From positions 1 through 30,104 of IMG/VR virus record IMGVR_UViG_3300037048_000168: DNA of 30,104 nt. One strand, given 5' to 3'. Shown here in pieces: positions 7,366 to 30,104 of this stretch. A program made the position numbers and the translations under genes. The notes below the pieces were generated by a model. The model was not told the origin of the DNA. It did no database searches and worked only from the letters and a program-made list of their open reading frames with translations. Origin of the DNA: a virus (lineage: Duplodnaviria; Caudoviricetes). Every line of letters begins with the position of its first letter. The stretch's first letter is position 1.

Positions 7366-7764
7366 ATGCGAAAATTTATGGTGCTGGTGTTGATCCTGAG
7401 CCTGGGGCTGCCGTCGCTGGGATGGGCGGCGCCTTTACTGACCCCGTTTGAATTATCGCGAGATGTGCGTTCGAACAATAACACCCTGATTCCCAACGCC
7501 TCGCAGTGGGTGAACGCCCAGGTGTTGGCGGCGGGCGTGGCAGAAACCGTGACGGTGCCCACGGGGGCCAAAGTGGTGGTTTTCTCCGGCAACAATGATT
7601 TTTACGTAAATTTTTCCGGGGGGACGGCGGCAGTACCGGGCGCAGATGTGAGCGATGGAACCGCAGCAGAACTTAATCCATCCGTCCGGTATGTCTATAC
7701 GCAGGGAACTTTCAGCGTGATATCGCCCTATGCCTGTATCATTACGCTGTCATATTACAAATAG
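7366..7764 (+). CDS. Small beta-rich phage protein with predicted signal peptide
   Basis: AGGAGG RBS; MRKFMVLVLILSLGLPSLGWA-APLL; beta-strand-rich mature region. Confidence 0.8.
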   Translation: MRKFMVLVLILSLGLPSLGWAAPLLTPFELSRDVRSNNNTLIPNASQWVNAQVLAAGVAETVTVPTGAKVVVFSGNNDFYVNFSGGTAAVPGADVSDGTAAELNPSVRYVYTQGTFSVISPYACIITLSYYK

Positions 7765-7787
7765 CTGATTTGGGAGGAAAAGGGCCG

Positions 7788-9965
7788 ATGACTCGCCATC
7801 TGGTTTCGCTGCTAATAGCCGCTTTGTTAATCTGCGCGCCGCTGGCTCCGGAGGGGCAATCCTATCCCGGAATTTATACTAATTCAGGCGGCGGGGGTCA
7901 TTGGGGGGATATCACCAATAAACCTGAAATTTGGGTCGGCGATGCGCTCTACGGGGCGACGCTGCAAACCGCCATTACCGCCATCGGGGCGACGGCGGCT
8001 ACCCTGCATATTCCGGCCGGGACGCACAGCATCGCCGCTGACCTGACCATCCCGGCCAACGTCACTTTGAGGCCGGAGCGGGGGGCCACCCTCGCCATTG
8101 CCACCACCAAGACCCTCACCATTAACGGCGGATTTGAGGCGGGGCTGTATCCGGTGATCACCTGCACCGGTACGGGAACGGTGGTCTTCGGCGACAGAGT
8201 GCCCGTAGTCTTTCCCCAATGGTTCGGAGCGGTGGGTGACAATTCCACCGATGACTCTGCGGCTATCAACCTGGCGGCGGCTGTGGCCCGGGGGTCGGCG
8301 TCTAAAAGGCTGGCGCTGCCGGCCTGCACCGGCTACAATGCGGCCTCGCAACTCGATCTACAACAATTACATATCGAGGGCAAGGCGACGGTCTCGAGTT
8401 CCTATGATGGCCATGCAGTATTGATCGGGAACGGCTCCAGGCTGGACATTGAACTTTCAGTTACCCGCAGCCCCGCCATCAGGACTGCCGGCACCAGTGG
8501 CATCTGGGTGTCGCAGTTAAATTATTCCACCCTGACCCTGGCTTCAAGTAATAGCTATATCGGCATAAAGTTCGAGGCCGGTACGGGCGCCATGGCTTAC
8601 AACACCATCACGTTGAAGAATTTGCATTATAACAATACCGGCCTGATGGTGCATGTCCCTGCCGGGGTGACTGGCTGGGCTAACGAAAACCTGGTTATCG
8701 GGGGTAGTTTTGGGGGGGCGGTAACCGGTGGCCTAAGCGCGGTTACCCTTCTCGGAGAAGGAACCAACGCGATTAACAAATGGTCCTTTATAAAGCCGAG
8801 CTTTGAGATTTCGGAAGGGACCGCGGTCATTACCACCAAGGCCCAAAATTGTCAGTTTCGCGACGTGCGCCGGGAAATGGGGGATGCCCTGGCAGTCGCT
8901 ACGTTTAATGACCGCAGCTATAACAACGTAATCTCCCTGGGATCATCTGATCGGTACTTCTTTTGGAACTATCAGACTGGCGGTTCATACGGAGCGCCTG
9001 GGTGTGACGTTAGGATGGAGGTGGATTCGCCGCCATTCCGGTTGACCGATTTTGCCAGTTTTAACAGCGCCTACCACGACGGCACTTATCTGCACGCGCC
9101 TGGGTTTCAACTAATTGACCCTTCTACCGGAGTAGTATCCCGCAAACTCAACACCACTAATTTAAAACTGATTGACGGCTTTGGGGGGGCGGCATTGGTG
9201 GGCACAGGTGACTCCTATGATAATATAGGTATCACAGTTAATTTTAAGAGAGACGTTGTTAATGGTTATCTAAGTCACACCAAAAAACTTTATGTCAAGG
9301 GTAGAACCTTGGATAAAGATCAAGAGCCTACTGTTTGGGTTAAGTGCTATGACTCCGCCGGTAACGTCCTCAGCGGAACTACACCGGCGTATGTGCAGGG
9401 GAATAGATGGACGGCTGTCAGCACCTTTTACAAAATCTATGCTTCGAGTCCAGCAACTAACGCTCTTTCATTCCATAAGGATGTCGCTAAGGCTCTAATC
9501 GGTGTAGCAGGCAGCGGGAATAAATTAACGGGCCTGGAAATCTACTCTCCTTACCAGGCTGACGGCTATTTGGACTATACCGGCCCGAAGGAGCTCCCTG
9601 GGGCCCTGTATGCGGCCAACGCCCCGACTAAATGGCATTTCCAGGTGGGGGACAGGGTGCTGAACGATGCCACGGCCTCTGGACAGCCCCAGGGCTGGAC
9701 CTGTACCAAACGCACCAGCACCACCCTCACGGCGGACGGCAGCGGGGGAGATTTAACGATAACGGTTGCCAGCATCACCGGCATCGCCAGTGGCGACATT
9801 ATTGGAGTCAAACTCAACACCGGGCAATATCATTTCACTACGGTCAACGGCGCCCCTGCGGGTAACACCGTAACCCTTACCGCCGCCCTGCCCGGAAGCG
9901 GGGTTGTGGCCACCTCTGGCAATGCGGTGGTGGCTAATCTGTGGACGGCGATGCCGAATTTGTAG
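7788..9965 (+). CDS. Tailspike / beta-helix depolymerase-like protein with predicted signal peptide
   Basis: PQWFGAVGDNSTDDSAAIN pectate-lyase-like entry motif, Asn/Gly-rich beta-helix, C-terminal VGDRVLN...GWTCT domain; paralogous to the 28150 tail fibre. Confidence 0.85.
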   Translation: MTRHLVSLLIAALLICAPLAPEGQSYPGIYTNSGGGGHWGDITNKPEIWVGDALYGATLQTAITAIGATAATLHIPAGTHSIAADLTIPANVTLRPERGATLAIATTKTLTINGGFEAGLYPVITCTGTGTVVFGDRVPVVFPQWFGAVGDNSTDDSAAINLAAAVARGSASKRLALPACTGYNAASQLDLQQLHIEGKATVSSSYDGHAVLIGNGSRLDIELSVTRSPAIRTAGTSGIWVSQLNYSTLTLASSNSYIGIKFEAGTGAMAYNTITLKNLHYNNTGLMVHVPAGVTGWANENLVIGGSFGGAVTGGLSAVTLLGEGTNAINKWSFIKPSFEISEGTAVITTKAQNCQFRDVRREMGDALAVATFNDRSYNNVISLGSSDRYFFWNYQTGGSYGAPGCDVRMEVDSPPFRLTDFASFNSAYHDGTYLHAPGFQLIDPSTGVVSRKLNTTNLKLIDGFGGAALVGTGDSYDNIGITVNFKRDVVNGYLSHTKKLYVKGRTLDKDQEPTVWVKCYDSAGNVLSGTTPAYVQGNRWTAVSTFYKIYASSPATNALSFHKDVAKALIGVAGSGNKLTGLEIYSPYQADGYLDYTGPKELPGALYAANAPTKWHFQVGDRVLNDATASGQPQGWTCTKRTSTTLTADGSGGDLTITVASITGIASGDIIGVKLNTGQYHFTTVNGAPAGNTVTLTAALPGSGVVATSGNAVVANLWTAMPNL
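8162..9326 (+). repeat. Long imperfect direct repeat, copy 1 (tailspike body)
   Basis: Aligns by eye with 28929-30102, starting CTGCACCGGTACGGGAACGGTGGTCTTCGGCGACAGAGT. Confidence 0.95.
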
Positions 9966-9990
9966 GGGAGAGGTTTTAAAGAGTGAAATT

Positions 9991-10635
9991 ATGATGCGGC
10001 GAATACAAAATATCCGCAAGGAAACCATCTTTGAAAACCCCGAGACTCAGCAGTCTTACCGGCGGGTGGTGGGGGCAATGGGGTGGCCTTGGGAGCCACG
10101 ACCTGGATTTCTGGTGGTGCTGGGGGAACAATACCTGGTGGATCAGGGGTTGAAAGGGCGTCCCCTGGAGGTTCTGGCGGAGCGGGAAGTTGAGAGTATC
10201 CCGGCCCTGCATCAGGGCTGTTTGGAACTCAGGAAGCAATGGTGCTGTGATATCTGGCTGGCCGACCTTCAGCAGAAAGAAGCGGTGAGGCTGTTTCGGC
10301 AGATCAACCGGGGGCTGAATGACCGCCGGAACGATATCGAGCCGGTGCAGTTGCATACCGCGCCGTATAGTCATGGGGCCGGACAGTTGCAGGTGTTGTT
10401 TCAGATGCTGGGGATGGTGCAAAGCCCGGATCACAAGCTGCTGTCCTACGGGCCGGATAGCAAGCTGCCCCGATATGCCCAGGGCCTTGACTCTAAGGAC
10501 CTTAAAGAGAAAGCCGGGAAGTTCCCGGCATTGGCGGCCCTGGCTTATGCGGTGGCCGAAATGATCCTTCGGGAGCCGTGGTCAGGCAAAGAACCAAGCC
10601 AGCAGGTGGTCACAGATTGGGACTGCTACGCATAG
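9991..10635 (+). CDS. Hypothetical protein resembling a degenerate terminase RNase H-like nuclease domain
   Basis: The pattern VVGAMGWP...GFLVVLG...LEVLAE...IWLAD...ALAALAYAV parallels GxDWG...VxxE...ADxA...DALRYA. Confidence 0.6.
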   Translation: MMRRIQNIRKETIFENPETQQSYRRVVGAMGWPWEPRPGFLVVLGEQYLVDQGLKGRPLEVLAEREVESIPALHQGCLELRKQWCCDIWLADLQQKEAVRLFRQINRGLNDRRNDIEPVQLHTAPYSHGAGQLQVLFQMLGMVQSPDHKLLSYGPDSKLPRYAQGLDSKDLKEKAGKFPALAALAYAVAEMILREPWSGKEPSQQVVTDWDCYA

Positions 10636-10647
10636 AGGGAGGGAGAC

Positions 10648-10872
10648 ATGGGAGGATTTGCCAGAGCTATTTTCGGCAAGCCGAAGGTTCCGAGTATGCC
10701 ATTGCCGCAGCTTCCAGTGGCGCCACCGGATATGAGCGCCGCCAGGGCGGAGGCGGAGAAGAAACGCCGGGCGGCGGCCCTGGCTAAAGGCGCAGCTTCG
10801 ACCCTTTTAACCGGAGGGCAGGGATTATTAGAGGATGCCCCGGTGCTGCGCCATCAACTTATGGGACAATGA
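10648..10872 (+). CDS. Small pre-portal virion/assembly protein
   Basis: GGAGG RBS; MGG...Pro-rich...GAASTLLTGGQG...LMGQ pattern typical of the gene before the portal in T7/BPP-1-like podoviruses. Confidence 0.8.
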   Translation: MGGFARAIFGKPKVPSMPLPQLPVAPPDMSAARAEAEKKRRAAALAKGAASTLLTGGQGLLEDAPVLRHQLMGQ

Positions 10873-10873
10873 G

Positions 10874-12538: not shown

Positions 12539-12576
12539 AAGCAGTAGTCAGTAGTCAGTAAAAAAGGGCGACAAAC

Positions 12577-12804
12577 ATGACTGAAGTTTCGAAAGTCTCT
12601 GATCTGGAATTAGCCTACCGCGGGACGCCAATGGCGGTCCGGGAGGACCTGTTGAGGTTCTGCGGAGTGTGGTCGCCAAACCTGTCGGTTGACCCCCTGG
12701 AGATGGCCAGGAATGAAGGCCGCCGCCTGGTGGGCCTGTATATTTTGCAGATGTTAGGAGAAGTTACCTTACCAAAGGAGACCTTATGTCAGAAGAAGCG
12801 GTAA
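12577..12804 (+). CDS. Bbp19-like small protein
   Basis: DLLRFC...MARNEGRRLVGLYILQML; position between portal and scaffold. Confidence 0.75.
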   Translation: MTEVSKVSDLELAYRGTPMAVREDLLRFCGVWSPNLSVDPLEMARNEGRRLVGLYILQMLGEVTLPKETLCQKKR

Positions 12805-13613
12805 CCAGCCCCGGGACCGAGGCCGGGATTACTGGCGGTGAAGAGCGGAGTTGGCAGGAAACCTTTCTGTCGGGGGATGAATTTGCCGATCTCAGGGGGA
12901 ATGAGAGCCTGACGACCATCCCAGACGTGCGGACTCTGGCTAAGGCGTTTGTCGATACGAAGGCCATGGTAGGCCGCAAGGGCGTGATCCTGCCCAAGGA
13001 GGACGCCGCCCCGGAGGAATGGGAACAATTCTACACGCAATTAGGGCGCCCGGCGACTCCGGAGGCCTACGTCCTCAAGCCCGAGGGGCTGCCGGAGGGT
13101 TTCCCCTATATGGCGGAATTGGAGACCAGTTTCCGGCAGCTAGCGTTTCAGGCGGGATTGACGCCGGCGGCTACGAAGATCATCTATGACGGCTACAACA
13201 AATTCGCCCTGGAGCAGGCGCAAAATAGCCAGCGGGAATTAAAAGCCGAAATGGAGGAGATCCAGGCCGGTTTGCAGAAAGAATGGGGCGTAAAGTATGA
13301 GGAGAATATAGCGCTCGCCAGAAAAGCTATGAACCAGTGGGCGCCCCCCGGATCACCGGAACTGCTGGCCTTGGACCGATCCATCGGAGAGTCCCCGGTC
13401 CTGGTGAAGTTTTTCTATAACCTCGGAAAGTCCATGGGCGAAGGAGAATTTATTGCCGGGGGCTACACGGCGAACGCCAGCCTGGAAGCCAAGCGCCAGG
13501 AATTGATGCGGCACCCGGCTTATGTGGATGAAAAGCACCCGGAGCACAAGGTTATCGTGGACCAGGTAATCAAAATTTATCAGGAGATGCACCCGGAGCA
13601 GCAGGAGCAGTAG
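12786..13613 (+). CDS. Capsid scaffolding / assembly protein
   Basis: Acidic; FYTQLGRPATPEAY, LQKEWG and HPEHK motifs; precedes the capsid gene. Confidence 0.85.
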   Translation: MSEEAVTSPGTEAGITGGEERSWQETFLSGDEFADLRGNESLTTIPDVRTLAKAFVDTKAMVGRKGVILPKEDAAPEEWEQFYTQLGRPATPEAYVLKPEGLPEGFPYMAELETSFRQLAFQAGLTPAATKIIYDGYNKFALEQAQNSQRELKAEMEEIQAGLQKEWGVKYEENIALARKAMNQWAPPGSPELLALDRSIGESPVLVKFFYNLGKSMGEGEFIAGGYTANASLEAKRQELMRHPAYVDEKHPEHKVIVDQVIKIYQEMHPEQQEQ

Positions 13614-13614
13614 G

Positions 13615-13775
13615 CGGGAGTACCCTATCCAGGGCCCCGAGTATGGCGCCATCAGCACCAGCGGATTACCTCGCAAGAGGCCCGGAAAGCTCTTAGCCGC
13701 TTGAGCGGCTGGCAGTGCCCCCGGCCCCGCCAGGATGGGCGGATTAGCCGAAATTACCTACAAATTTCGGAGGTT
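13615..13775 (+). promoter_or_regulatory. Structured leader of the capsid gene (candidate cis-regulatory RNA)
   Basis: Five hairpins; three share a G-ANUA / C asymmetric internal loop; the last hairpin overlaps the GGAGG RBS. Confidence 0.6.
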
Positions 13776-16385: not shown

Positions 16386-19144
16386 TGGCCAGGGTTACCC
16401 CGATACTGAACAACCAGACCTCGGGAGAGATCACGCCGCTGCTGTCCGGGCGGGTGGATTTAAACAAGTACCACAACACCGGAGAAATAGTCAGAAATAT
16501 CTATCTTCACACTCAGGGGCCTTCAAGTTCTCGACCCGGTTCAGAGTATATCGCCGCGGTCAAAGACCATAGCAAGCGCGTCCGCCTCGTCGATTTTCAG
16601 TTTAGCGCCACGCAGTCATACGTCCTGGAGTTCGGGGATCAGTATATCCGGTTTTATAAAGACAAAGGGCAGATCGCCGCCGGGCTGACGCCGTACGAAA
16701 TGGCCAGCCCGTACAAGGAATCGGACCTCCGGGACCTGAGATTCATTCAGTCGGCGGATTTCATGTTCATCTGCCACCCCTGGCATTACCCCCGCCAATT
16801 AACCCGCACCGGGCATACCGCCTGGACGCTCACCAATGTTCCCTTGGTGAACGGGCCGTATCTGGACGAAAACACTACCAAGACCACCTTGAAACCCAGC
16901 AGCTCCGGTTTGGGTGATACCATTTCCCTGACGGCCTATCCGGAAGTGGGTGATGAGGAGGTAATAAACGGCGATTTTGCTACAAACGCCACCTGGATTT
17001 GGGGCACGGGTTGGGCGCATGACGCGGTAGGACTGGAAGCGGATCATACCCCGGGCAACATCCTGCCCCTGGAACAGGCAATCAGTCTCACCCCGGGTAA
17101 GATGTATTTTATTGAATACCTCATTAACAATCTGACCGCGGGCAGTGTTACCCTGAAGCTCGGCGGGGTTAACGGGGTAACCCGGGCGCTGAACGGCGCC
17201 TACGCCGAAACCATTATCCCCACCACCACCAGCAATCTCCAGTTTACGCCCAGCACCGACTTTGACGGCTCCATTGACACGGTTTCGGTAAAAGAGGTTA
17301 GCAGTCCGGCAGCATCTTGGCTGTTAGGAATCGAAACGGTAATAAACGGTGATTTTGCCACCGATACCCCATGGATCTGGGGCGCCGGCTGGACCCATAA
17401 TGCGGGGACCTTGAAGGCTGATCATGCCCCAGGGAACATCCTGCCCCTGGAGCAGGCAATCAGCCCTATAGCGGGTCAAAGGTATCTCCTGCAATACACG
17501 GTCAGCAATCTCACCGCGGGGCATGTGACGCCGAAGCTCGGCGGAGTTAATGGGACACCACGGTTTGCAGACGGAACTTACACTGAAATCATTACTCCTC
17601 TCACCGGCGGCAATCTGCAATTTTATCCTGATATAAGTTCCAGTTTCATACCGCCACAATTTGACGGCTCCATTGACACGGTGTCGGTAAAAGAGGTTTA
17701 TGATCCCTTGGCGGTTTTTTATCCCGGTCATGTGGGATCTCTGTGGCGTCTGCGCTACGGCTCCGCCTCGGGATTTGTAGAGGTGACCGGTTATGTTTCC
17801 GGGGTCGAAGTCACCGCAGTGGTCAGGGATGGTTTGGGAGGGACCGCTAAAACCAAAAACTGGCGGGAAGGAGCGTTCTCGGATTACCGGGGCTTTCCGG
17901 CCACTTTGGCCTTCCATGAGCAGAGGCTGTTGTTCGCCGGGACGCCGAGCAAGCCGCAAACTATTTGGGGGAGCAAGTCGGCGGATTATCCCAATTTTGC
18001 CCCCCAGGACCCGATCACCGACGACGGCCCTATTACCTACACCATCCCCAGCGCCTCGGGACAGATCAACATCATTAAATGGCTGGCCTCAGGCCGGTCC
18101 CTGGTATCCGGAACCGTTAACGAAGAAATATCTTTGTCCACCGGCAATGAAACCGGGTTAACCCCAAGTAATCCGCCGATTATCCGGGCCAACACCTTTA
18201 AAGGCAGCGCCAATATTTCCCACATCTGGGTGGGCAATGCCATCTTGTTTGTGGAACGGCATGGCCGCAAGGTGCGGGAACTGGCCTACAGCTTCGCCGA
18301 TGACGCCTATGTGGCCCCAGACCTGACCATCTGGAGCGAACATATCACCGCTCCCGGCCTGGTGGAGTGGGCCTACCAGCGGGAACCGGATCAATGCCTG
18401 TGGGCGGTGCGAGGCGACGGGGCGTTTCTGAGCATGGTCTATGAACGGGCTCAGGAAGTGGTGGGCTGGGCCCGGCATGATACTGACGGCGAGGTGGAAT
18501 CCATCGCCTGCATCCCCGGAACCAAGCAGACGGAAGTGTGGCTGGCGGTGAAGCGCATTATCAACGGGGCGGTGAAACGCTATGTCGAATGTCTCCGGGA
18601 CGTGGATTTCGGGGCCGACCAAAAGGATGCCTTTTTTGTGGATTGCGGCCTGACCTATGCCGGAGTCCCAGCGCAAGTGATCTCCGGCTTGGGTCACCTG
18701 GAAGGCAAAGAGGTGGCGATCCTGGCGGACGGAGCGGTTCATCCGCGGCGAACCGTGAACGGCGGACAGATCACTTTGGAGGTTGCAGCCTCTAAGGTAC
18801 AAGTGGGATTGCCGTACCGGAGCCAATTCTTTTCGGTCCCAATAGAAGCCGGGGCCACGGACGGCACCGCCCAGGGGAAGATCAAGCGCATTGACCATCT
18901 GACCCTGCGCCTGCTCCGGTCCATGGGCGGGCAGGTCGGCCCGGACCTTGACAACCTGGAGCCGTTGATCTACCGGCAGGCGGAGGATGACATGGACACC
19001 GCCACGCCCCTGTTCACCGGCGACCTGGAGCTTGATTTCCAGGGGGAATATGAGTCCAAGGGCCAGATTATGATCGTCCAGGACGACCCCCTACCCCTGA
19101 CCATTTGTGCGCTCATCCCGCGCCTGACCACCTTTGAGGGCTGA
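16385..19144 (+). CDS. Tail tubular protein B (nozzle, T7 gp12-like) with two inserted repeat domains
   Basis: SGEITPLLSGRVD, LEFGDQYIRFY, QRLLFAGT, VVGWARH and GLGHLEGKEV motifs. Confidence 0.92.
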   Translation: MARVTPILNNQTSGEITPLLSGRVDLNKYHNTGEIVRNIYLHTQGPSSSRPGSEYIAAVKDHSKRVRLVDFQFSATQSYVLEFGDQYIRFYKDKGQIAAGLTPYEMASPYKESDLRDLRFIQSADFMFICHPWHYPRQLTRTGHTAWTLTNVPLVNGPYLDENTTKTTLKPSSSGLGDTISLTAYPEVGDEEVINGDFATNATWIWGTGWAHDAVGLEADHTPGNILPLEQAISLTPGKMYFIEYLINNLTAGSVTLKLGGVNGVTRALNGAYAETIIPTTTSNLQFTPSTDFDGSIDTVSVKEVSSPAASWLLGIETVINGDFATDTPWIWGAGWTHNAGTLKADHAPGNILPLEQAISPIAGQRYLLQYTVSNLTAGHVTPKLGGVNGTPRFADGTYTEIITPLTGGNLQFYPDISSSFIPPQFDGSIDTVSVKEVYDPLAVFYPGHVGSLWRLRYGSASGFVEVTGYVSGVEVTAVVRDGLGGTAKTKNWREGAFSDYRGFPATLAFHEQRLLFAGTPSKPQTIWGSKSADYPNFAPQDPITDDGPITYTIPSASGQINIIKWLASGRSLVSGTVNEEISLSTGNETGLTPSNPPIIRANTFKGSANISHIWVGNAILFVERHGRKVRELAYSFADDAYVAPDLTIWSEHITAPGLVEWAYQREPDQCLWAVRGDGAFLSMVYERAQEVVGWARHDTDGEVESIACIPGTKQTEVWLAVKRIINGAVKRYVECLRDVDFGADQKDAFFVDCGLTYAGVPAQVISGLGHLEGKEVAILADGAVHPRRTVNGGQITLEVAASKVQVGLPYRSQFFSVPIEAGATDGTAQGKIKRIDHLTLRLLRSMGGQVGPDLDNLEPLIYRQAEDDMDTATPLFTGDLELDFQGEYESKGQIMIVQDDPLPLTICALIPRLTTFEG
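16961..17698 (+). repeat. Tandem duplicated ~115-aa domain inside the nozzle gene
   Basis: VINGDFAT...GSIDTVSVKEV at 16961-17299 and 17339-17698. Confidence 0.95.
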
Positions 19145-20183: not shown

Positions 20184-21737
20184 ATGCCGCGCATTCCTCT
20201 CTATGATCCTTCCGTGCAACTGAGCCACCTGGGACCCCAGGTTGAGCAGGACATTAAGAGCTTCGGCATGGAGAACCTGGCCATGGCGAAGAATTGGGAA
20301 CTGGTGGGCCAGGCCGGGGACAAGTTGAGCGAGATGGGATTGCAGCTTAACCAGCGGCTGCACCAGGCCAAGATGGTCAATGACCTGGCCGGCATGAAGA
20401 TGGACACCACCCAGCGTCTTTATCAGTTGCGGGATGAGGTGCAGAAAGGGCCGGACCCGGAGAAGTGGGAGCAAACTTTTAAGGAGGCGGGAGCCAAGAT
20501 TTTTCAGGAGAATTTGGAGCGGTCCACTGATGCCGGAGTCCAGGCCCATTACAAAACGGCCTGGGCCAGCCATTTTCCGGTGATGCTGCATGGGGTGACG
20601 GTGGAGGCCCGCAAGACGCAGATCGCCAATTTCGCCGGGAACCTGGAGGAAAATTACGGCAAAAGCATTGATCTGTTTAACCAGGCCGGAAACGATATCG
20701 AGAAGGCCAAGATCAAGGGGGACGCCTTCGGGATGATCCAGGGCGGGGTGTCCGCCGGGTTCCTGACGCCGGTTAAGGCCCAAAAATTGCGGGAGGGGTT
20801 TGATCAGTCGGTCATGCTGGCGGCGGTCAATCAGGAAATTATGAATGACCCCAAGGGCGCTTTCGATAAATTGGCGGACCCGGCCAGATATTTTTCCGGC
20901 ATGGACGCCCAGACCGCCATGACTTTGCGGGGCCGGGCCCAAGCGGAAATGCACCGGGTCCAGGGGGACAACGCCCTGGAGGTGCAGAAGCTCTACGAGA
21001 CTAAGCAGCTCACCCCGGAGTCCTTGAAGGCGATGCGGGACGGCAGGACCATCAACCTGGGGACCTGGAAGATGTACGACGCCGCTCTGCAAAGCGACGC
21101 CCTGCCGGTGAAGGCGGCGAAGGACAATGATCTGTACGTCCGGCGGTGGCAACAGGCCCTGGCGGGGAACCTGCCCGAGGACCAGGTGTTCAATGATTTG
21201 CGGGCCGGGGCCATCACCAAGAGCGAAGCCCATTTCCTGATTAATACCAGCAAGAAAATGGCGGTGGGCGAGACTCCCGATGACCTGGCCTTTACCAAGT
21301 CCCCTTATTACAAGGCGGCGATGGGCGAGTTGAATTACCGGAGCGCCCAGATCGACAAATCTCTGTGGAACCTGAAGCCCGGTGCAAAAAAGTCGTCGGC
21401 CAAGGGCGAGGCGACCATGATGTTTCTCGACGAATGCCGCGCCGCCCAGAAACAGGGGATGCCCCCGGGTCCCTGGATGCTGGAATCGGTCAACAAGATT
21501 TTGAAGCCTATAGAAATGATGAACACCCCGGGGGCTGGGGAGCCGCCCAAGAAGACCTGGTGGCAGAGGACCTTTGGGAGTGATGAGGAGGCTGGAAAAG
21601 GACGGCAGGCGGGGACGCCTGCGACAGGCCAGGGACAAACCGGAATCCCGGTAATGAATAAGCGGACAGGCAAAATGGAACATGTGTCCCAAGCCGAGTA
21701 TGACTTGATCATGCAAAATCAGAAAGGTGGCCGCTAA
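20184..21737 (+). CDS. Internal virion / ejection protein B (gp15-like)
   Basis: MPRIPLY start, helical 517 aa, syntenic position. Confidence 0.75.
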   Translation: MPRIPLYDPSVQLSHLGPQVEQDIKSFGMENLAMAKNWELVGQAGDKLSEMGLQLNQRLHQAKMVNDLAGMKMDTTQRLYQLRDEVQKGPDPEKWEQTFKEAGAKIFQENLERSTDAGVQAHYKTAWASHFPVMLHGVTVEARKTQIANFAGNLEENYGKSIDLFNQAGNDIEKAKIKGDAFGMIQGGVSAGFLTPVKAQKLREGFDQSVMLAAVNQEIMNDPKGAFDKLADPARYFSGMDAQTAMTLRGRAQAEMHRVQGDNALEVQKLYETKQLTPESLKAMRDGRTINLGTWKMYDAALQSDALPVKAAKDNDLYVRRWQQALAGNLPEDQVFNDLRAGAITKSEAHFLINTSKKMAVGETPDDLAFTKSPYYKAAMGELNYRSAQIDKSLWNLKPGAKKSSAKGEATMMFLDECRAAQKQGMPPGPWMLESVNKILKPIEMMNTPGAGEPPKKTWWQRTFGSDEEAGKGRQAGTPATGQGQTGIPVMNKRTGKMEHVSQAEYDLIMQNQKGGR

Positions 21738-24700
21738 TGGTTTTTGACCCCAGCGACTACAGGCCTCTTGATGTTGAGGAAATGGCGGCGATCTCCGGGG
21801 TTTCCTCGCCGGATGAAGGCGATATCCAGTTCAGCGGGACTACGGGCCGGTCCCGGACCAATAACAATCCGCTCAATTTAGAGTATCGCCCCGGCAGCTA
21901 TCAGGACAAGTATGGGGCGGAATTGGAACCGCAACCCCGGGCCGGGAGCAGGCGCAGGTTCGCCAAGTTTAGGAGCATGCAGGACGGGTATAACGCTGGG
22001 CTGGATCAGATCAGACTCGACCAAAGCTCTAAGAGAAATCACACCCTCGCCTCATTCGTAGAGAAGTTTGCTCCCCGGCATGAAAACCCTACGGATGAGT
22101 TGATCGCCACTTATGCAAAACAGGTCGGCGCCCGCCCCGATACGCCTCTATCGGAAATCGCCCCGGAAAAGCTGATTGTCCCCATGCTGGCCAGGGAGTC
22201 GAGCACCAGGATAAAGCGCGGCGGGGGAGTGCTGGGCTTCCTAAGCGAGGTCCTGGGGCCGGCCAGCGCCGAAGCGGCGGAAGGTCCGGCAGTCCGTCCA
22301 GGGTTTAATCCAGCAGATTATAGCGTCAGGCCAGATTTTAACCCTTCTGATTATAGTGTTCAAGGAGCGCAGGCGGGGACGCCTGCACCACTGACAAGAA
22401 AGGAGCCGGGGATTTATGAGGAAAAGCGGACCCTCATCGAGTCCGTCAAGGATTATTTGGGCTACCGAGATCTGCCGGCCTTCCTGCCCGCTTTCAACCA
22501 GGAGACGGGGTTGTGGCAGGCCCTAGATATTTATGAGGCCCGGAAGCTCTACCACGGCTGGGAAGAACCTACGGAATTGGAGCGGGTCCTTTACCGCTGG
22601 GTGGTTACTACTACTACCCTGGGGGCGGCGGATTGGATTGCCAAGGATCTGACTGCGCCGGTGCCGGGGCCGAAAACTGCGGTCGGGGCCTTTGCCTCCG
22701 GGGCACTGGATTTTGCTAGCTTCATGGTGTTTCCGTTCAAGATGGCGGAAGGTCTGTTGGGGACGCGGCTGGCCCCCACCCGGTCAGGACTCCGGGGGTT
22801 AGCGCAGGTGATGGGCCAGGGCGGGGCGACCCTGGGGCTGGCCAGCGCCATTTCCGGCCTGTTGCCGAGCCTGGCGCACAACGACCGGGTGAGCGATGCC
22901 GGGCTGGAATTTGTCAAGGGCACGGCCAGCGGCGCTACAATCGGGGCGCTGTTTCCCGTGGCCGGGCTGGTGCCCACCAAGACCTTGCGGATGGCAGTCG
23001 GGTTGGCGGGCTTGGATTTCGTCAAGACCCGATTCCACGAGGCCCCGGACAAGGGGCTGTTCACCCTGGACGATGTGTACCGGGGGGTGCGGGACGGCAC
23101 CATCGACCGGACGGTCCTGGCGCAGAAGACCTTTGATTATCTGCTGGACCTCTACTTTCTGGCCAAGGTCCCTTCCATGAAACAGCAGTTGGCGGGCCTG
23201 AAGATGAACGCCTTGATGGAGGAGGCGGGCAGGGTCAACCCCCAGGAAGCGGAAGACGCTTTGGTGGAGATCGGCAAGAGCGGGGTGCTTCAAGAGCAGG
23301 GGTCAGGGGTCAGGGGTCAGGGGTCAGGGAAAGAAGGAGTGCAGGCACAAGAAGGACCGCAGGCGGGGACGCCTGCGCCACTGGAGGATCTGGGGACACC
23401 GGTTAAAAAGCCGGAGCCAGTGGCCTGGAAAAAACCCTGGGAGTTGAGCGGGGAGGAGTATGGCGCAAGGGTGCGGGCCTTGAGTTCTGAGGACCGGCCG
23501 GAGCCGACGCCGGAGAAGGTCGCCAAGCTGCGGGAGGCGGACGTGCGCCAGGCTCTGAAGCGGGGCGAGCCGGTGCCTCCCGAAGTCCTGGCGGATTTCC
23601 CGGAGATGGCGGGAAGGGTTGGGAAGGAGTTACCGGCGGCGGGGGGGTTGGAAGTCAAGAATATTCCCACCGCGGCGGTCAAGGCGGACCCGGAAAGGTT
23701 TCAATATAAGCTGGGGGCGGATGAGACCACCGGGGCAGGGTTGGCCCTGGGGGATGTTAAGACCTGGGATGAGGGCTTGTCCGGGGTCTTGACCCTGTGG
23801 CGGTCCCCGGAAGGCGAGTTGTTTGTGGTCAACGGCCACCAACGGTTAGCCCTAGCCCAAAGGACCGGCACCGAATCGGTCCGGGCGCAGGTCCTGGACG
23901 CCTCCGGGTGGTCGGATGTGCAGGCCCGGGCCTATGGCGCCCGCATCAACATTGCCGAGGGCCGGGGCACTGAAATTGACGCCGCCAAATTTATGCGGGA
24001 TATGGGGATTTCCCCCTCAGACCTGGCGGCCCAAGGCGTGTCGCTGGTGGAGGGCAAGACCCGGCGGGCGGTGGCCCTGGCGCAGTTGTCCGATCCCCTC
24101 TTTCATTTCACGGCTACGGGAGACATTCCCGTGCGGCGCGCCGCCATTATTGGCGAAGAATTGTATGGGAACCATCCGGCCCAGGACGCCCTCTTTAAGA
24201 CGATCCGGTCTTTGGAAAAAGCCGGCAAAGTTATCAGCGACGGCAAGTTGAGAGAATTGATTCTGCTGGGCAAGGCGGCGGGAGTGGTGCCGGGTAAGCA
24301 GAAGAACCTTTTTGGCGAAACGGAAATTAAGAAAAGTCTGATGCTGGAGGTGGCCGACCTCCTGGAAAACGCCAAAACTCAGTTGCGGCGGGATAAAAAT
24401 ATTTTTGGGATGGTGGACAAAGAATCGGCCAGGTTGAGCCGGGGCAAGAACATCATTGATCCCGAGACCAACAAGGCTATCTCTGAGGAGGCCGCCCAGG
24501 CGATTGACGCCCTCAACCGGTTCGCCTACATGGGTGATTCAGCAACCCGGAAAATAATTGATAGTTTTGCGCGTAAATTATCGACAAGTAAGAAAAAATC
24601 GGCTATAAGGGAAGAATCCTATGAAGCCATCAAAACCGCAATTTCAGAAGATCGAACCAAGTTCGGACTTGATGCAGGGACTCGACCGGGCGCTGGCGGC

Positions 24701-27700
24701 AAAGAACCCGCAGCAGGCGTCCGTTCTCTCTTCGGGGTTGAGCCAGGTGCAGCAACAGCAGCAGCAGGAGAAGTTCAAGCCCCTCCGGTAACATCCGCAT
24801 TACCCCCAGGCGTTAAGGAATTTCAGGGAAAGTTCGGCACCGCCCGCGGCGAGAAGCCGGACGTGGGGATTTCTGCGCCCGAGGCCCCGGATTATGCCTA
24901 CATCGACAAGGGCGATATGGTGCGGGATGCCCGGAACCCGGAGGCCTTTGGGGCGGTGGTGCGGGAATCGGCGAGGGGGGACCAGAAGGGCTTCATCGTC
25001 GAGCGGGACGGGAAGGATTATTTTATTCCCCGGGAAGAGGCCCGGCTGATGGGGCTGGAGGAGTTGGAGGGGACGCCTGCACCACCGGGCAAGATGTACG
25101 GCGGCGGCCCGGGGCTGGAGGAGATCCAGGCTTACGGGAAGCAGCTGCTGGCCCTGGGCAATAAGATGATTGATTGGGTGGACGCCCGGTTGGACAAGAA
25201 TTTACCCCCGGAGTTGCAGAACAAGGACGCGGGGAAGATTGTCGGGAGCCTGCTGTTGAAGTTTCAGCAGTTTGAGGATATCGCCCGGACCTATCCCGAG
25301 GCGCAGGCGACATTTGAGGCGGCCCGGGCCGGGCTGGCCCTGAAGACCCGCCACGCCGCCGAGTTCTACAGTCTGACGACCCCGTACCTGAGCCGGTTGA
25401 AACCGGGAGAACGGGCCAGGGTGGACAAGGCGCTGGTGGATCTGGACATAATCAATGATCCGGCCATGGGGGAGAACTTCCGGCTGGGGAACGATATCGA
25501 CCGGTGGCAGTCCTACCTTCTGAATCCCCGGGAGGATATCCGGGATAAGGGCGTCGCCTTTTATATGGGGCGGGGCTTGAATGCCGTGGAAGCGGAGGGG
25601 GCCTTCGGGGTGCGCATGAGCCTAGATTACGCCAAGGCCCTGCACCTGGACTGGCACACCCGGAGCTTTCAGGAATGGCTCCAGTCTCACGGCTTTGACC
25701 ACGGCAGGATCAAAGACATTATGGACTGGGTCCTGAATACCGAAATGAAGCCGGATGAGATCGCCAAGGCTTTTTTCGGAGCGGAGCCCGGCAAGAACGT
25801 GGGGCACATCCTGGAGAATTTCCGCCGCAGCATGTCCTATTGGCTCAAAGAGACACACCAGTATATCCCCCATAGCAGGTTCGGAGAATATTTTATCCGC
25901 GTGATCGATACTAACCAGGCCGCCAAAGCCAAGGAGGCCTATAAGAAGACCCTGGAGGCCATCGGGCGCCGGTATCCCAAGGATAAGGTTGAGGTTGAAG
26001 CCCTCATGCAACAGGCTTCTTTGGAGTTCATGGAGGGGGAATCCCCCTCACCCCAGCCCTCTCCCGGTAGAGGAGAGGGGGCGAGACTGAGCAAGGCGGA
26101 CCAGCTGCGGGCGAAGGCCCGGGATAAATACCAGGCGGACATGAAGGCGACGGTGATCCACGCGGCGGCGGCGGAGAGCAAGGCGCAGTACCATGATAAG
26201 CGGGCGGCGCTGGAGGCTGAGTTCCCGGCTGAGGCAGGCTATGTGATCAAGCAGAGCCTGAATAAGCAGTTGCCCATGGAAATCTTTTCCGAGACTCACA
26301 TCCCCCGGGTCTGGCGGATCGTCAGCGAGGCGGCGGCCACCGGCAAGATGCCCGAGGGGTCCAAGGAAGCCATGATCGAGGCCTGGCAAGACTTCCTGGC
26401 CGCCAAGGGATTCGGGGCCCACTTCATCAAGCGGAGCAACACCCCGGGCTATGAAACCGATTTGAAACGGCCCCTGACCGGTTACCTGGCGGGCCTGGCG
26501 GGGTACATCGGCAAGATGGAAAAGATTCGGGGGTTCTCGGAGGCCTTCCAGGAGGTCCCCAAGGAGATGCCCAACCTCCTGCGGCACCTGAATGAGTACG
26601 GTAATTATGTCCTCTCCAACCCATACGAGTATGAGGGGATCAGGAACGTCATCTACAACTGGACCCTGGGGGGTAATTTCTCCTTCCACTTCATTAACGC
26701 CCTGCAAAATATGTCCACCGGCTGGGCGGTGCTGGGAACGGCGGGGCCGGGGCCGGTGAAGCATCTCGCCGGGGCCAACAAGGATTGGGGCCGGTACATG
26801 CTCACCGGGGAGGGGCTGCGCCCGGGAGAAGAGGCGCTGCTGCACCGGGCGCGGTTTGAACCGGAGTTGGCGCCCTCGGGAGTCGCCGAACTTTCCGGCC
26901 AGGCCTACAATCCCCTGTACCGCTGGCTGCACAACGACCCGACTTCACTATCGGCCAAGGCCATGGACGTGTTTAAAGGGTTCTGGAGCGGGGCCTTTGT
27001 GGAGCAGTTGAACCGGGAAACCTTCTTTTTGGCGGCATTGCGCACCACCGGGGATTACGACCAGAGCGTCGCCCTGGTCCGGCAGGCGCATTTTCTCTAC
27101 GGCAAGGAGACCCGGCCGTCCGTGGCCCGGGGGGCCGGGTCCATCCCGGCGATCTTCCTGACCTACACCACCAACTATTTTACCCTCCTGAAGAATTTCA
27201 GCAAGGCGGCCCTGGGGGTGAACCCGGAGATCTATGGCACCCAGGCCCAGGGGGCCAAGGGGTTGGCCCGGATGTTCGCCGGGGCCATGATCAGCGGCGG
27301 GCTGACGGCCAGCTTCATCGGCCCGATCCTGAAGACGGCCTGGGAACAGGTATTCGGGAGCAATCTGGAGGAAGACGCCAAGGATTTTTTGCAGCACACC
27401 GTCGGGGTGTCCAAAGGCACGGCGGAGTTTACCGAACGGTTGTTCGACCGCGGCCTGCCGGCGGCGGCCCTGGGAATCGACATCGGCAGCCGCATTGCCC
27501 CTAACCTGCCGATGCAGAGACAGTTGAGCGAAGATTTGACCTGGCAGAACCTGGTAGCCGGGGCGCTGGGGGCCGGGTCCATCCCCTTGCAGGTGGCTTT
27601 TGGGGTAGGAAAGGCCCTGCACCAGGGCGAACCGGGAAAGGCCCTGGAAGCGGGGGCGCCGGTGTCGGTGGGGAACGTCCTCAAGGCGCTGCGGCTGGGG

Positions 27701-28135
27701 ACCGAGGGGGCCACCACCTTTAAAGGCCAGCCGATCTTCACGGACCAGGGGGAGCCTCTGGTATTGGACATGGGCGAAGCGATCCGGAAGGCGGCGGGAT
27801 TTCAGCCCATCCGCCTGGCGGAGCATCAGCGCAAGGCGAGCTTCGCCCGGGAGATGGAAAAGGACCGGCGGGACAAGGCCCAGGGGTTTGCCGGGGATCT
27901 GGCCAGGGCGATCCGGGCCGGGGATGATGCGGGGTTTAACCGCACCGTCGAGGCCTTGACCGCCTATAACAATGAGATGCAGAAGGCCGGACGCCTGGCG
28001 GATATCATTGACCCCAAGTCGGTGGAGCAGGCGGTTCGGAGCCGGTTTAAATCGAAGTACCCGGACGTGTCCCAGAAAAAGATGATGCTGCGCCGACCAC
28101 AGCCGGAGACGGAAGAACAGGAAGATCAGGAATAA
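21737..28135 (+). CDS. Large polyvalent ejection protein: lysozyme-like, ParB-like and PLxRFG-type domains
   Basis: RTNNNPLNL...FAPRHEN near the N-terminus; LFVVNGHQR; YIPHSRFGEYF; 2132 aa in the gp16 position. Confidence 0.8.
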   Translation: MVFDPSDYRPLDVEEMAAISGVSSPDEGDIQFSGTTGRSRTNNNPLNLEYRPGSYQDKYGAELEPQPRAGSRRRFAKFRSMQDGYNAGLDQIRLDQSSKRNHTLASFVEKFAPRHENPTDELIATYAKQVGARPDTPLSEIAPEKLIVPMLARESSTRIKRGGGVLGFLSEVLGPASAEAAEGPAVRPGFNPADYSVRPDFNPSDYSVQGAQAGTPAPLTRKEPGIYEEKRTLIESVKDYLGYRDLPAFLPAFNQETGLWQALDIYEARKLYHGWEEPTELERVLYRWVVTTTTLGAADWIAKDLTAPVPGPKTAVGAFASGALDFASFMVFPFKMAEGLLGTRLAPTRSGLRGLAQVMGQGGATLGLASAISGLLPSLAHNDRVSDAGLEFVKGTASGATIGALFPVAGLVPTKTLRMAVGLAGLDFVKTRFHEAPDKGLFTLDDVYRGVRDGTIDRTVLAQKTFDYLLDLYFLAKVPSMKQQLAGLKMNALMEEAGRVNPQEAEDALVEIGKSGVLQEQGSGVRGQGSGKEGVQAQEGPQAGTPAPLEDLGTPVKKPEPVAWKKPWELSGEEYGARVRALSSEDRPEPTPEKVAKLREADVRQALKRGEPVPPEVLADFPEMAGRVGKELPAAGGLEVKNIPTAAVKADPERFQYKLGADETTGAGLALGDVKTWDEGLSGVLTLWRSPEGELFVVNGHQRLALAQRTGTESVRAQVLDASGWSDVQARAYGARINIAEGRGTEIDAAKFMRDMGISPSDLAAQGVSLVEGKTRRAVALAQLSDPLFHFTATGDIPVRRAAIIGEELYGNHPAQDALFKTIRSLEKAGKVISDGKLRELILLGKAAGVVPGKQKNLFGETEIKKSLMLEVADLLENAKTQLRRDKNIFGMVDKESARLSRGKNIIDPETNKAISEEAAQAIDALNRFAYMGDSATRKIIDSFARKLSTSKKKSAIREESYEAIKTAISEDRTKFGLDAGTRPGAGGKEPAAGVRSLFGVEPGAATAAAGEVQAPPVTSALPPGVKEFQGKFGTARGEKPDVGISAPEAPDYAYIDKGDMVRDARNPEAFGAVVRESARGDQKGFIVERDGKDYFIPREEARLMGLEELEGTPAPPGKMYGGGPGLEEIQAYGKQLLALGNKMIDWVDARLDKNLPPELQNKDAGKIVGSLLLKFQQFEDIARTYPEAQATFEAARAGLALKTRHAAEFYSLTTPYLSRLKPGERARVDKALVDLDIINDPAMGENFRLGNDIDRWQSYLLNPREDIRDKGVAFYMGRGLNAVEAEGAFGVRMSLDYAKALHLDWHTRSFQEWLQSHGFDHGRIKDIMDWVLNTEMKPDEIAKAFFGAEPGKNVGHILENFRRSMSYWLKETHQYIPHSRFGEYFIRVIDTNQAAKAKEAYKKTLEAIGRRYPKDKVEVEALMQQASLEFMEGESPSPQPSPGRGEGARLSKADQLRAKARDKYQADMKATVIHAAAAESKAQYHDKRAALEAEFPAEAGYVIKQSLNKQLPMEIFSETHIPRVWRIVSEAAATGKMPEGSKEAMIEAWQDFLAAKGFGAHFIKRSNTPGYETDLKRPLTGYLAGLAGYIGKMEKIRGFSEAFQEVPKEMPNLLRHLNEYGNYVLSNPYEYEGIRNVIYNWTLGGNFSFHFINALQNMSTGWAVLGTAGPGPVKHLAGANKDWGRYMLTGEGLRPGEEALLHRARFEPELAPSGVAELSGQAYNPLYRWLHNDPTSLSAKAMDVFKGFWSGAFVEQLNRETFFLAALRTTGDYDQSVALVRQAHFLYGKETRPSVARGAGSIPAIFLTYTTNYFTLLKNFSKAALGVNPEIYGTQAQGAKGLARMFAGAMISGGLTASFIGPILKTAWEQVFGSNLEEDAKDFLQHTVGVSKGTAEFTERLFDRGLPAAALGIDIGSRIAPNLPMQRQLSEDLTWQNLVAGALGAGSIPLQVAFGVGKALHQGEPGKALEAGAPVSVGNVLKALRLGTEGATTFKGQPIFTDQGEPLVLDMGEAIRKAAGFQPIRLAEHQRKASFAREMEKDRRDKAQGFAGDLARAIRAGDDAGFNRTVEALTAYNNEMQKAGRLADIIDPKSVEQAVRSRFKSKYPDVSQKKMMLRRPQPETEEQEDQE
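23297..23329 (+). repeat. Heptamer tandem repeat (CAGGGGT) x4.7
   Basis: CAGGGGT x4 plus CAGGG inside the large ejection protein gene. Confidence 0.9.
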
Positions 28136-28149
28136 AAGGAGCCGGAGCG

Positions 28150-30104
28150 ATGAAAAGCTGGAGAAGATCCGCAGGCTGGAAAGCCTGCGCCACTTTGATC
28201 ATGGTTTTGATGGCCATCATCTGGTTAGTATCCGCCGCCGGAGCCACGGTGAGCAGTTCCGGCAACAAATGGATCTACACCGCCGACGGCGTCCAGAAGA
28301 TTTTCCCCTATGTAAACCGGATTTACACCGCCACGGATCTCAAGGTCTATTTGCGGGATACCAACGGTTTGGAAACTCTTCAGATCAAGGATGTGGATTA
28401 CACCGTGTCCGGGGTCCTGAATGCCACCGGGGGCAACGTCACCTTCGGGACGGAGCCGCCGTCGGGTAATCAGGTCATCGTCAAGATTGAATTGCCGCTG
28501 ACTCAAGATCTGGCCTTGCCGGAATATGGACGCCTGCCCTCGGTCCCCATGGAAATCTCCCTGGACCGTCAGGTCAAGCTTACCCAGCAGATCCAAGAGC
28601 AGTTAGACCGGTCCTTGCATTTTTCTCTGGGAAGCGCCGCCAGCGGTTTGATGCCGGAAAACCGCACCGGGTTCCCTTTATATCTCCGGTTAAATGCCGC
28701 CGGGACCGCCATTGAAGGGGCGGCGGCGCTCCCGACGACTGCCTTCAATCTTAGTTGGATAGATGTTAAAACCTATGGGGCGCTCTTTGACGGGGCGGCT
28801 TTAGCCGCGGCCATCGCCGCCAACCCCGGCGGCGGGACTCTTTACTTCGGCGCCCCCTGCACCGTGACTGCCCCGGTAACCATACCGGCAGGTTTCGCCA
28901 TTGCCGACGGTCCTTACAAAATTTTTAACTGCACCGGTACGGGAACGGTGGTCTTCGGCGACAGAGTACCGGTAGTCTTTCCCCAATGGTTCGGAGCGGT
29001 GGGTGACAATTCCACCGATGACTCTGCGGCTATCAACCTGGCGGCGGCCGCTGCCCGGGGGTCGGCGTGTAAGAGGCTGGCGCTGCCGGCCTGTATTGGC
29101 CACAAGGTGGCCTCGCAACTCGATTTTCAGCAATTGCATGTCGAAGGTAAGGCGGCGATCACTAGTTCTTACGATGGTCATGCAGTATTGATCGGGAACG
29201 GCGCCAGGCTGGATATTGAACTTTCAGTTGACCGCAGCCCCGCCATCAGAACTGCCGGCACCAGTGGCATCTGGGTGTCGCAGTTGAATTATTCCAACCT
29301 GACCCTGGCTTCAAGTCATAGCTACATCGGCATAAAGTTCGAGGCCGGTACGGGCGGCATGGCTTACAACACCATTACATTGAAGAATTTACATTACAAC
29401 AATATCGGCCTGATGGTGCATGTCCCCGCCGGGGTGGCTGGGTGGGCTAACGAAAATCTGGTTATCGGGGGTAGTTTTGGGGGGGCGGTAACCGGTGGCC
29501 TAAGCGCGGTTACTCTTCTCGGAGAAGGAACCAACTCGATTGACAAATGGTCCTTCTTAAAGCCGAGCTTTGAGATTTCGGAAGGGACCGCCGCCGCCGT
29601 TTTTACCAATGCTCAAAATTGTCATTTTCACGACGTGCGTTATGAGTGCGGCACTGCTGTTCCTGTAGCTCTATTCAACGACCGTAGTTATGGGAATGTT
29701 ATATCATTAGGCTCTGTTGCTCATACCCCCTATACCTGGGACGTGCAGGCTTACGGTCCAGGTTTATACGGGACGATGGATAACGATGTGCGTATGAGCG
29801 GCGATTACAGTCTGCACCGTTTAACAGATGCAGCCAGCTTTAACAGCGCCTACCACGACGGTACTTATCTCCACGTGCCTGGGTTTCAACTCATTGATCC
29901 TCCTTCCGGTGTGGTGTCCCGCAAACTCAATACCACTAATCTAAAGCTGATTGACGGCCACGGCGGGCCGGCCTTGTTAGGCACAGGTGACTCTTATGTT
30001 AATGTAGGTATCACAGTGAATTTCTACGATGATATGCCCAATAATACTTCTTATGCTAAGAAGTTATACATCAAAAACCGCCTCTTGGATAAGAACCAGG
30101 AGGC
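28150..30104 (+). CDS. Tail fibre/tailspike with T7 gp17-like N-terminal anchor and predicted signal peptide (3' truncated)
   Basis: Translated by hand, open to the window end: MKSWRR...LVSAAGA-TVSSSGNKWIYTADGVQKIFPY...DYTVSG...LDRQVKLTQQ, then a beta-helix. Absent from the ORF track because there is no stop. Confidence 0.92.
   Translation, partial: MKSWRRSAGWKACATLIMVLMAIIWLVSAAGATVSSSGNKWIYTADGVQKIFPYVNRIYTATDLKVYLRDTNGLETLQIKDVDYTVSGVLNATGGNVTFGTEPPSGNQVIVKIELPLTQDLALPEYGRLPSVPMEISLDRQVKLTQQIQEQLDRSLHFSLGSAASGLMPENRTGFPLYLRLNAAGTAIEGAAALPTTAFNLSWIDVKTYGALFDGAALAAAIAANPGGGTLYFGAPCTVTAPVTIPAGFAIADGPYKIFNCTGTGTVVFGDRVPVVFPQWFGAVGDNSTDDSAAINLAAAAARGSACKRLALPACIGHKVASQLDFQQLHVEGKAAITSSYDGHAVLIGNGARLDIELSVDRSPAIRTAGTSGIWVSQLNYSNLTLASSHSYIGIKFEAGTGGMAYNTITLKNLHYNNIGLMVHVPAGVAGWANENLVIGGSFGGAVTGGLSAVTLLGEGTNSIDKWSFLKPSFEISEGTAAAVFTNAQNCHFHDVRYECGTAVPVALFNDRSYGNVISLGSVAHTPYTWDVQAYGPGLYGTMDNDVRMSGDYSLHRLTDAASFNSAYHDGTYLHVPGFQLIDPPSGVVSRKLNTTNLKLIDGHGGPALLGTGDSYVNVGITVNFYDDMPNNTSYAKKLYIKNRLLDKNQE
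28929..30102 (+). repeat. Long imperfect direct repeat, copy 2 (tailspike body)
   Basis: Aligns with 8162-9326; similarity runs to the window end. Confidence 0.95.

Follow-up and report, generated by a model that had tools for sequence, protein, structure and literature searches.

We identified three genes with predicted Sec signal peptides in the genome of a tailed phage (Caudoviricetes), which makes export of its tail fibre and of two further appendage proteins from the host cytoplasm likely. The window, by which we mean the whole stretch of DNA analysed, is the entire 30,104-base virus record IMGVR_UViG_3300037048_000168. Named by their start positions, the three genes are 28150, which encodes a fibre with a T7 gp17-type tail anchor, and the adjacent pair 7366 and 7788, which encode a small beta-sandwich protein and a beta-helix protein of tailspike fold. 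Judging from the sequence, we consider it somewhat probable that the three products are exported, cleaved and attached to particles at lysis.

Leaders were called with a rule-based test of the n, h and c regions written for this analysis, not with SignalP. Only 7366, 7788 and 28150 passed, that is, 3 of 25 curated plus-strand genes and 0 of 5 minus-strand genes, and no core virion gene did. This agrees with the original prediction, which had placed Sec-type leaders and good ribosome-binding sites (RBS) at these three positions and had noted that no core structural gene carries such a leader. The RBS motifs are GGAGGA before both 7366 and 7788 and AGGAG before 28150. Chance controls gave no passes, either at internal methionine positions (0/128) or in random internal windows (0/2000 per protein). 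Four control gene starts were mis-set, three by 1-2 codons and one, on the minus strand, by more; none of them had a leader-like start. The predicted leaders are as follows.

7366 to 7428, plus strand: predicted Sec signal peptide of 7366, 21 amino acids, cut between GWA and AP, rule score 9.0.
7788 to 7856, plus strand: predicted signal peptide of 7788, score 7.4, cut uncertain, before Q24 or after S25.
28150 to 28245, plus strand: predicted signal peptide of the fibre, 32 amino acids, cut between AGA and TVSS, rule score 11.1.

The leaders of 7366 and 28150 are clear in all three regions, and that of 7788 in the n and h regions only. Its c-region is atypical, with Pro at -3 if the cut falls between Gly and Gln, and the rule places the cut after S25. 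The small-residue cleavage sites that had been proposed for all three genes thus stand for 7366 and 28150 and are less convincing for 7788, whose leader is the weakest of the three because of this atypical site. Neither a twin-arginine translocation (Tat) motif (S/T-R-R-x-F) nor a lipobox occurs in the three leaders; 28150 has W-R-R-S, which is off consensus. We found no membrane segments beyond the leaders in the three proteins, and no RBS-bearing alternative start at the mature domain of 7366 or 7788. The 28150 leader was seen unchanged in contigs of other sequencing runs (X1 27600-28958, X4 28027-28232 and X5 28145-28357); X1 and X5 span the junction of leader and anchor, and X1 may be the source sample itself. 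That the leaders represent real, selected export signals is well supported, because leaders with unrelated sequences and the same n/h/c build recur in homologues of all three proteins, and because the cleavage motif lands at the mature start.

The fibre gene lies after the internal virion protein genes, in the same slot as the fibre gene of a sister phage, G001. Its features are listed here.

28171 to 28193, plus strand: copy of a palindrome resembling repetitive extragenic palindromes (REP-like), inside the long n-region of the leader.
28240 to 28251, plus strand: possible internal start, with GGAG, 5 nucleotides and GTG at 28249, RBS score 3.5, which would yield a leaderless fibre.
28246 to 28630, plus strand: T7 gp17/Carin-1-type tail anchor, matched by PHROG 13893, 1640 and others from profile position 2.
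28929 to 30104, plus strand: fibre body, a beta-helix that 7788 and a host-type protein, P0189, also have; the gene leaves the contig here.

PHROG tail families match 28150 from residue 33 (Thr33), which aligns with profile position 2, and the cut between AGA and TVSSS therefore coincides with the anchor start. The earlier proposal that cleavage after AGA exposes the beginning of a gp17-like anchor is borne out by this alignment. A profile of the ten-sequence clade to which 28150 belongs matches residues 1-132 of Carin-1 Dpo31/Dpo36 (E 5.8e-33), a spike that is described as docking on the tail via this domain (PMC13317679). A Pfam search left the anchor domain of 28150 unmatched.

Among the best 150 representatives of the anchor relatives, 138 begin at the anchor, 11 bear a leader and 1 has the anchor internally; the search query contained the leader, so that 11/150 is an upper figure. 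When 28150 is included, all 12 leader-bearing anchors have a small residue immediately ahead of the anchor start (Ala in 10, Ser, Cys), and the -3 residue is mostly small or aliphatic. These leaders show no sequence relationship to one another, and they occur on separate parts of the tree, with 8 changes, at least 4 of them forced by strong branches (quick tree). Homologues that start at the mature domain, which had been named as evidence against export, account for the 138 anchors above and for 16 of the 27 relatives of 7366. Because the majority of homologues are leaderless, the leader is best described as a repeatedly gained add-on and not as a family constant. L085 is the sole leader-bearing locus of 59 compared; its leader, which falls below the rule threshold and was identified by eye, sits on the only anchor gene of the locus, and a start codon is absent at the anchor start. 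Another locus, L042, had appeared leader-bearing from a tblastn impression and was rejected, since stop codons upstream of the Met rule it out. The leader of the relative P0047, compared with P0117, apparently arose by duplication of the protein's own first residues around a hydrophobic insert.

Comparison with G001 places these genes in an evolutionary context. This sister phage is complete (40,467 bases with terminal repeats) and syntenic with the window, and its portal is 81% identical. Its single anchored fibre (P0038) is leaderless, begins Met-Thr-Val and contains 12 Cys. DNA identity between the window and G001 breaks at 7343 and returns at 10056, and in G001 the stop codon of the large terminase gene (terL) overlaps the start of the 9991 homologue. 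Because terL runs directly into that homologue in G001, the segment 7343-9990 is an insertion.

7343 to 9990, plus strand: inserted two-gene cassette 7366/7788, flanked by the large terminase gene and the 9991 gene, absent in G001.
7366 to 7764, plus strand: small jelly-roll/cupin-like beta-sandwich protein, 132 amino acids, model predicted local distance difference test (pLDDT) 93.
7788 to 9965, plus strand: beta-helix tailspike-fold protein, 725 amino acids, short Pro/Gly-rich head, model pLDDT 91.

The fibre 28150 is itself mosaic: residues 50-300 are 46-58% identical to the sister fibre, and residues 300-651 are 88-100% identical to P0189. Across the body, 365 of 409 residues are shared with P0189, the DNA is 83.6% identical to 8162-9244 in the 7788 gene, and the protein is 77% identical to 7788. 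The necks of the window and sister fibres cluster together (tree support 99). The most economical history is a gain of all three, leader, new body and cassette, in the lineage of the window phage, with loss in G001 as the alternative. As a separate observation, G001 carries a tandem pair of 10648-like genes between the 9991 homologue and the portal (L196), where the window has one copy.

The fold search with 7366 gave best PDB Z-scores of 6.9-7.2 and no clear solved relative or family, and Pfam contained no family for 7366 or 7788. The nearest Atlas clusters of 7366 are 76-100% viral, and an Atlas hit to PRD1 P5 spike-N (0.86, on 32% of members) serves as a lead only. Relatives of 7366 are usually found close to terminase, portal or fibre genes. 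The next gene is often fibre-like, and its product, once mature, starts with a short aromatic peptide rich in Pro and Gly; 7788, L012 and L016 have an I-Y-T motif in common. From this gene context we infer that 7366 is a head-spike base or a capsid decoration. The virion-type label that the earlier prediction gave 7366 is likewise drawn from gene context. The host is likely a member of the Desulfobaccales, to judge from homologue names and the distribution of the REP-like palindrome, and homologues of 7366 occur in 3 of 83 Desulfobaccales genomes, two of the three within phage clusters.

All 5 closest relatives of 7366 bear leaders, as do 21 of the 58 family members; the tree requires 7 changes of state (7-8 in the bootstrap). 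The gene that follows is leader-bearing at 9 of 11 leader-positive 7366-family loci vs 2 of 21 leader-negative ones (Fisher p 9e-5; L044, L048 and duplicate loci left out), and at 7/9 vs 2/19 when near relatives are collapsed. In the two exceptions, L014 and L255, a leaderless base gene precedes a leader-bearing fibre gene. There the base would stay in the cytoplasm while the fibre is exported, and therefore the two, if they are partners, could make contact only after the membrane is breached.

The monomer model of 7788 is a right-handed parallel beta-helix, and the 28150 body is likewise one by its identity to 7788. The best Foldseek hits of 7788 are K2-2 TSP (E 1.6e-9), Depo32 and CBA120 TSP2, with low whole-chain template modelling (TM) scores of 0.26-0.31, and we infer that the protein is a head fibre or an exported polysaccharide enzyme. 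In a set of 50,697 annotated phage records, 7366 was unmatched and 7788 was matched over a 10% piece only; first metagenome and genome scans confirmed nothing. The protein is 79% identical to P0189, whose leader and head it does not share (8% identity over residues 1-50). P0189 may be a host gene or a gene of another phage. Sequence of the P0189 type was found in the same runs as the phage, and contig depths, which are not copy numbers, were not used as such.

Leaders are common in the family of 7788 and P0189. The leader test is passed by 59 of 86 members, and 14 failing members with the family's usual head are mostly truncated or extended calls of a leader. Of the 83 Desulfobaccales genomes, 53 contain the family, whose members mostly combine a variable body with a conserved head and neck. 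Of the 30 chromosomal loci examined, 16 are next to polysaccharide genes, the association being clear in 12 and loose in 4; a further 4 stand at the end of a phage tail cluster, 2 are in Mu-like head modules (one of these placements deduced from gene sizes) and 8 are elsewhere. Given the polysaccharide-locus setting and the exported tailspike fold, many members resemble WceF of Pantoea stewartii, which is described as a Tat-exported tailspike-fold beta-helix hydrolase of an exopolysaccharide (EPS) operon (PMC7949094). The neck of 7788 groups among mostly chromosomal members with weak support (84), so that the direction of transfer is suggested and not fixed.

Several related observations concern this family. 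Leader-bearing tailspike-fold genes of the WceF-like family lie on chromosomes of Desulfobaccales and related bacteria (L050-L064, L233-L249), and in two Mu-like prophages (L055, L239) a leader-bearing spike gene stands two genes past the major head gene. The idea that the chromosomal relatives are all spikes of particles like gene transfer agents (GTAs) was rejected, with the tail protein strong in 7 of 83 genomes vs 53 of 83 for the spike family. A conserved phage cluster found in 7 Desulfobaccales genomes (L253, L065, L251 and L252, in G007, G049 and G050), with tail protein identity of 77-100%, contains several genes with leaders, some lying between portal and protease and others following the tail; it is possibly a domesticated prophage or GTA, its terminase-, portal- and capsid-like genes having been recognized by eye. 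The anchor query found no prophage in the 83 Desulfobaccales genomes, in a search that had no positive control.

In the reading that we favour, the leaders would direct 28150, which is the only tail-anchored fibre seen so far, and the likely head-spike pair of 7366 (base) and 7788 (fibre) through Sec. Cleavage by signal peptidase I in the periplasm would leave the anchor with a free Thr N-terminus, as removal of Met gives in leaderless fibres, and the exported appendages would dock on finished particles once lysis opens the inner membrane. The fibre body was probably acquired from an exported host-type surface-polysaccharide enzyme fitting the host's own glycan; export would keep this enzyme on its evolved route, and clearance of host polysaccharide could begin before the progeny exit. 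We favour export, cleavage and attachment because cleavage recreates the normal anchor N-terminus and the partner genes switch together, and we favour docking because an intact docking domain is retained on the exported protein. The anchor, the head-module position and the cultured precedent of Cellulophaga phage phi18:3, described below, favour joining to particles at lysis, and the host-type enzyme body and the internal GTG keep an action on the envelope alive. The original prediction had proposed exported appendages that either join particles or act on the envelope: the export leaders are supported, and the sequence does not decide between the two uses. It had overlooked that 7366 and 7788 form an inserted cassette and that the beta-helix bodies belong with a host-type family of polysaccharide loci. 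More broadly, and with the prospects slightly below even, these genes may belong to a second, extracytoplasmic assembly line, in which appendages are secreted by Sec and joined during lysis and a host exported enzyme is recruited by means of a leader and an anchor. Under such a scheme, the window phage and its leaderless sister would capture the switch itself.

Disulfide folding was considered as a rationale for export and is not supported. Among the 83 Desulfobaccales genomes, which are incomplete, DsbB exceeded the cut-off in 1 and VKOR in 0; even Cys counts (27/59 vs 12/27) show no excess, and the sister fibre contains its 12 Cys without any leader. Cys density is 0.88% in leader-bearing anchored fibres vs 0.42%, a comparison confounded by body type. 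A body derived from an exported enzyme, useful in the envelope before release, is the more likely reason for export.

Several points weigh against export and attachment. The leader calls rest on our own rule, and export, cleavage and virion location are all predictions here. The cleavage motif of 7788 is poor. Leaderless anchors prevail, both among the proteins (138/150) and at the DNA level (58 of 59 distinct viral loci), so that the anchor does not require export. A cytoplasmic fibre could be made from the internal GTG at 28249, which has an RBS; the folding of RNA near the two starts of 28150 (z -2.4) does not indicate a choice between them. Because the contig stops inside 28150, a second, leaderless fibre is possible, and a search of viral contigs with a pattern from the contig's end gave no match. 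The pairing of 7366 and 7788 as base and fibre is drawn by analogy, and strong branches alone allow a single origin of the 7366 leader. The spike family occurs in 53/83 genomes vs 7/83 with strong hits to the tail protein, and such proteins can evidently work without a particle. The disulfide reason for export is also unsupported, and in phi18:3 the annotation may reflect co-purifying protein, from genes (gp085-gp087) that are not homologous to 7366, 7788 or 28150.

Some of these points fit another use of the exported forms, namely as WceF-like envelope enzymes that trim or release host surface polysaccharide, with the tail receiving a leaderless fibre from GTG 28249. The benefit would be easier exit, less re-adsorption or superinfection exclusion. 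We regard this as unlikely though worth serious consideration, and it can hold together with attachment at lysis. Bodies 79-89% identical to P0189, the 16 of 30 chromosomal family loci beside polysaccharide genes, the GGAG-N5-GTG at 28240-28251 and the accessory nature of the cassette all agree with it, as does the precedent of WceF, a hydrolase of tailspike fold that is exported and encoded by an EPS operon (PMC7949094). It leaves unexplained, however, the leader on 7366, a small virus-associated beta-sandwich that has no enzyme fold and is found in 3 of 83 host genomes, and the precise fusion of leaders to anchors on several branches. Furthermore, L085 lacks an internal start at the anchor, and no plus-strand promoter-like site was found ahead of the cassette, so that expression in a lysogen is not indicated.

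The hydrophobic segments might alternatively remain uncleaved and hold the fibre and spikes at the inner membrane, where these would either point into the cytoplasm, for assembly at the membrane, or remain attached to the cell. We consider this improbable. The atypical c-region of 7788 and the long, basic n-region of 28150 could be explained in this way, whereas the small -1 and mostly small or aliphatic -3 residues at the mature start, in 12/12 anchors and in the 7366 family, point to cleavage, and there are no additional membrane segments. By the positive-inside rule, moreover, a basic n-region puts the remainder of the chain outside. More doubtful still is the suggestion that the leaders are untranslated or functionless extensions, arising from wrong starts or as passengers of a captured gene. 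Most anchor homologues begin Met-Thr, a repeat element makes up part of the 28150 leader, and the 7788 leader could derive from a captured exported gene. However, neither 7366 nor 7788 offers a second start with an RBS at the mature domain, the chance controls gave 0 passes, and the leader and head of 7788 differ from those of P0189 as noted above. The 28150 leader cannot be a carry-over from P0189 either, because it sits on a phage-derived anchor.

Profile scans of the remainder of the window identified a replication initiator (3990), large terminase (6023), T7-type portal (10874), scaffold, capsid (13784), tail tubes A and B, an acetyltransferase-like gene and three internal virion proteins, followed by the 28150 fibre. 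Portal, capsid and gp14-like genes were recognized along with tail tube A/B, consistent with a podophage. Metagenomes containing matching sequence come from groundwater and coal, and none of the listed matches is an RNA dataset. The REP-like palindrome (GCAGGC-N6-GCCTGC-NCCAC) has 9 matches in 7 places in the window, with 0.06 expected; there are 7 in the window, 7 per 336 kb in Desulfobaccales loci and 0 per 958 kb in other viral loci, and the palindrome is present in G001 too.

Window 3149, 4979, 15161, 21605, 22369, 23359 and 28171: REP-like palindrome copies, several in frame within virion genes.

Other features of the window are side observations. Tail tube B contains an internal duplication (16960-17299 and 17338-17698, 70% DNA identity) and is 919 amino acids long, against 781 in G001. 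The replication initiator gene has a 33-bp tandem repeat at 4282-4437, possibly origin iterons, and a cold-shock domain gene (3774-3986) lies immediately 5' of it, with one in G001 as well. The internal virion protein of 2132 amino acids (21737-28135) has a lysozyme-like match in its N-terminal part and a DarB-like match in its C-terminal part.

The component parts of this system are all of known kinds, and the export route for tailed-phage appendages is possibly new. If anchored fibres are exported, part of phage assembly takes place across a membrane, with lysis setting its timing. The gene pools of host polysaccharide-locus enzymes and of phage spikes would then be linked, providing a route to rapid change of host specificity and making hosts predictable from spike bodies. 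Annotation pipelines count a signal peptide against a virion role, a practice on which this case bears. What it contributes is a closely comparable sister phage whose fibre has no leader, a host-type protein almost identical to the fibre body as its candidate source, and an argument that disulfide folding is not the general reason for export.

To our knowledge, tailed-phage particles are regarded as completed in the cytoplasm, and extracytoplasmic assembly of appendages is not a known mode. A literature search of incomplete coverage, through titles and abstract openings, found no description of exported tail fibres or spikes. T7 gp17 and the P22 tailspike are established cases of late, spontaneous attachment to particles that are already complete. 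The host Sec system does serve other phage proteins, namely filamentous phage coat proteins and signal-peptide endolysins, but these belong to membrane-assembled, non-tailed virions or are lysis enzymes, not appendages of tailed particles. A nearer parallel is the cultured podophage phi18:3 (KC821620). Its gp085-gp087 satisfy the leader test, and their annotation gives them as structural proteins detected by tandem mass spectrometry (MS/MS), whereas 0 of the 9 other MS-annotated proteins tested pass. It thus has three leader-bearing proteins with virion annotation, although they are of other families and its host belongs to the Bacteroidota; we found no literature on the leaders of gp085-gp087.

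The cassette recalls the head spike of the gene transfer agent RcGTA, in which a jelly-roll base pentamer (Rcc01079) holds the Rcc01080 fibre by its first residues (PMC7296036). The likeness lies in the gene order, where a small protein modelled as a jelly-roll-like sandwich is encoded ahead of a fibre whose N-terminus is a short peptide, and in the capsule-binding role described for the RcGTA spike. In contrast, Rcc01079 is absent from the listed structural matches of 7366, and the portion of the source at hand makes no mention of leaders for the RcGTA spike. WceF resembles our proteins in its tailspike fold and in export, which for ours is predicted, and relatives of the 7788/28150 body stand in polysaccharide biosynthesis loci, a likeness of fold, export and locus context. 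Unlike WceF, a host enzyme that uses Tat, the window proteins have leaders without the Tat consensus and place the body on a tail anchor or in the head module. The closest known counterparts of 28150 are the T7 gp17-type fibres and Carin-1 Dpo31/Dpo36 (PDB 28lx, 28mg, 8ck1), which have the same M-T-V anchor, gene slot and beta-helix body. Known fibres of the gp17 type are leaderless, whereas in 28150 a 32-amino-acid signal-peptide-like leader replaces Met1.

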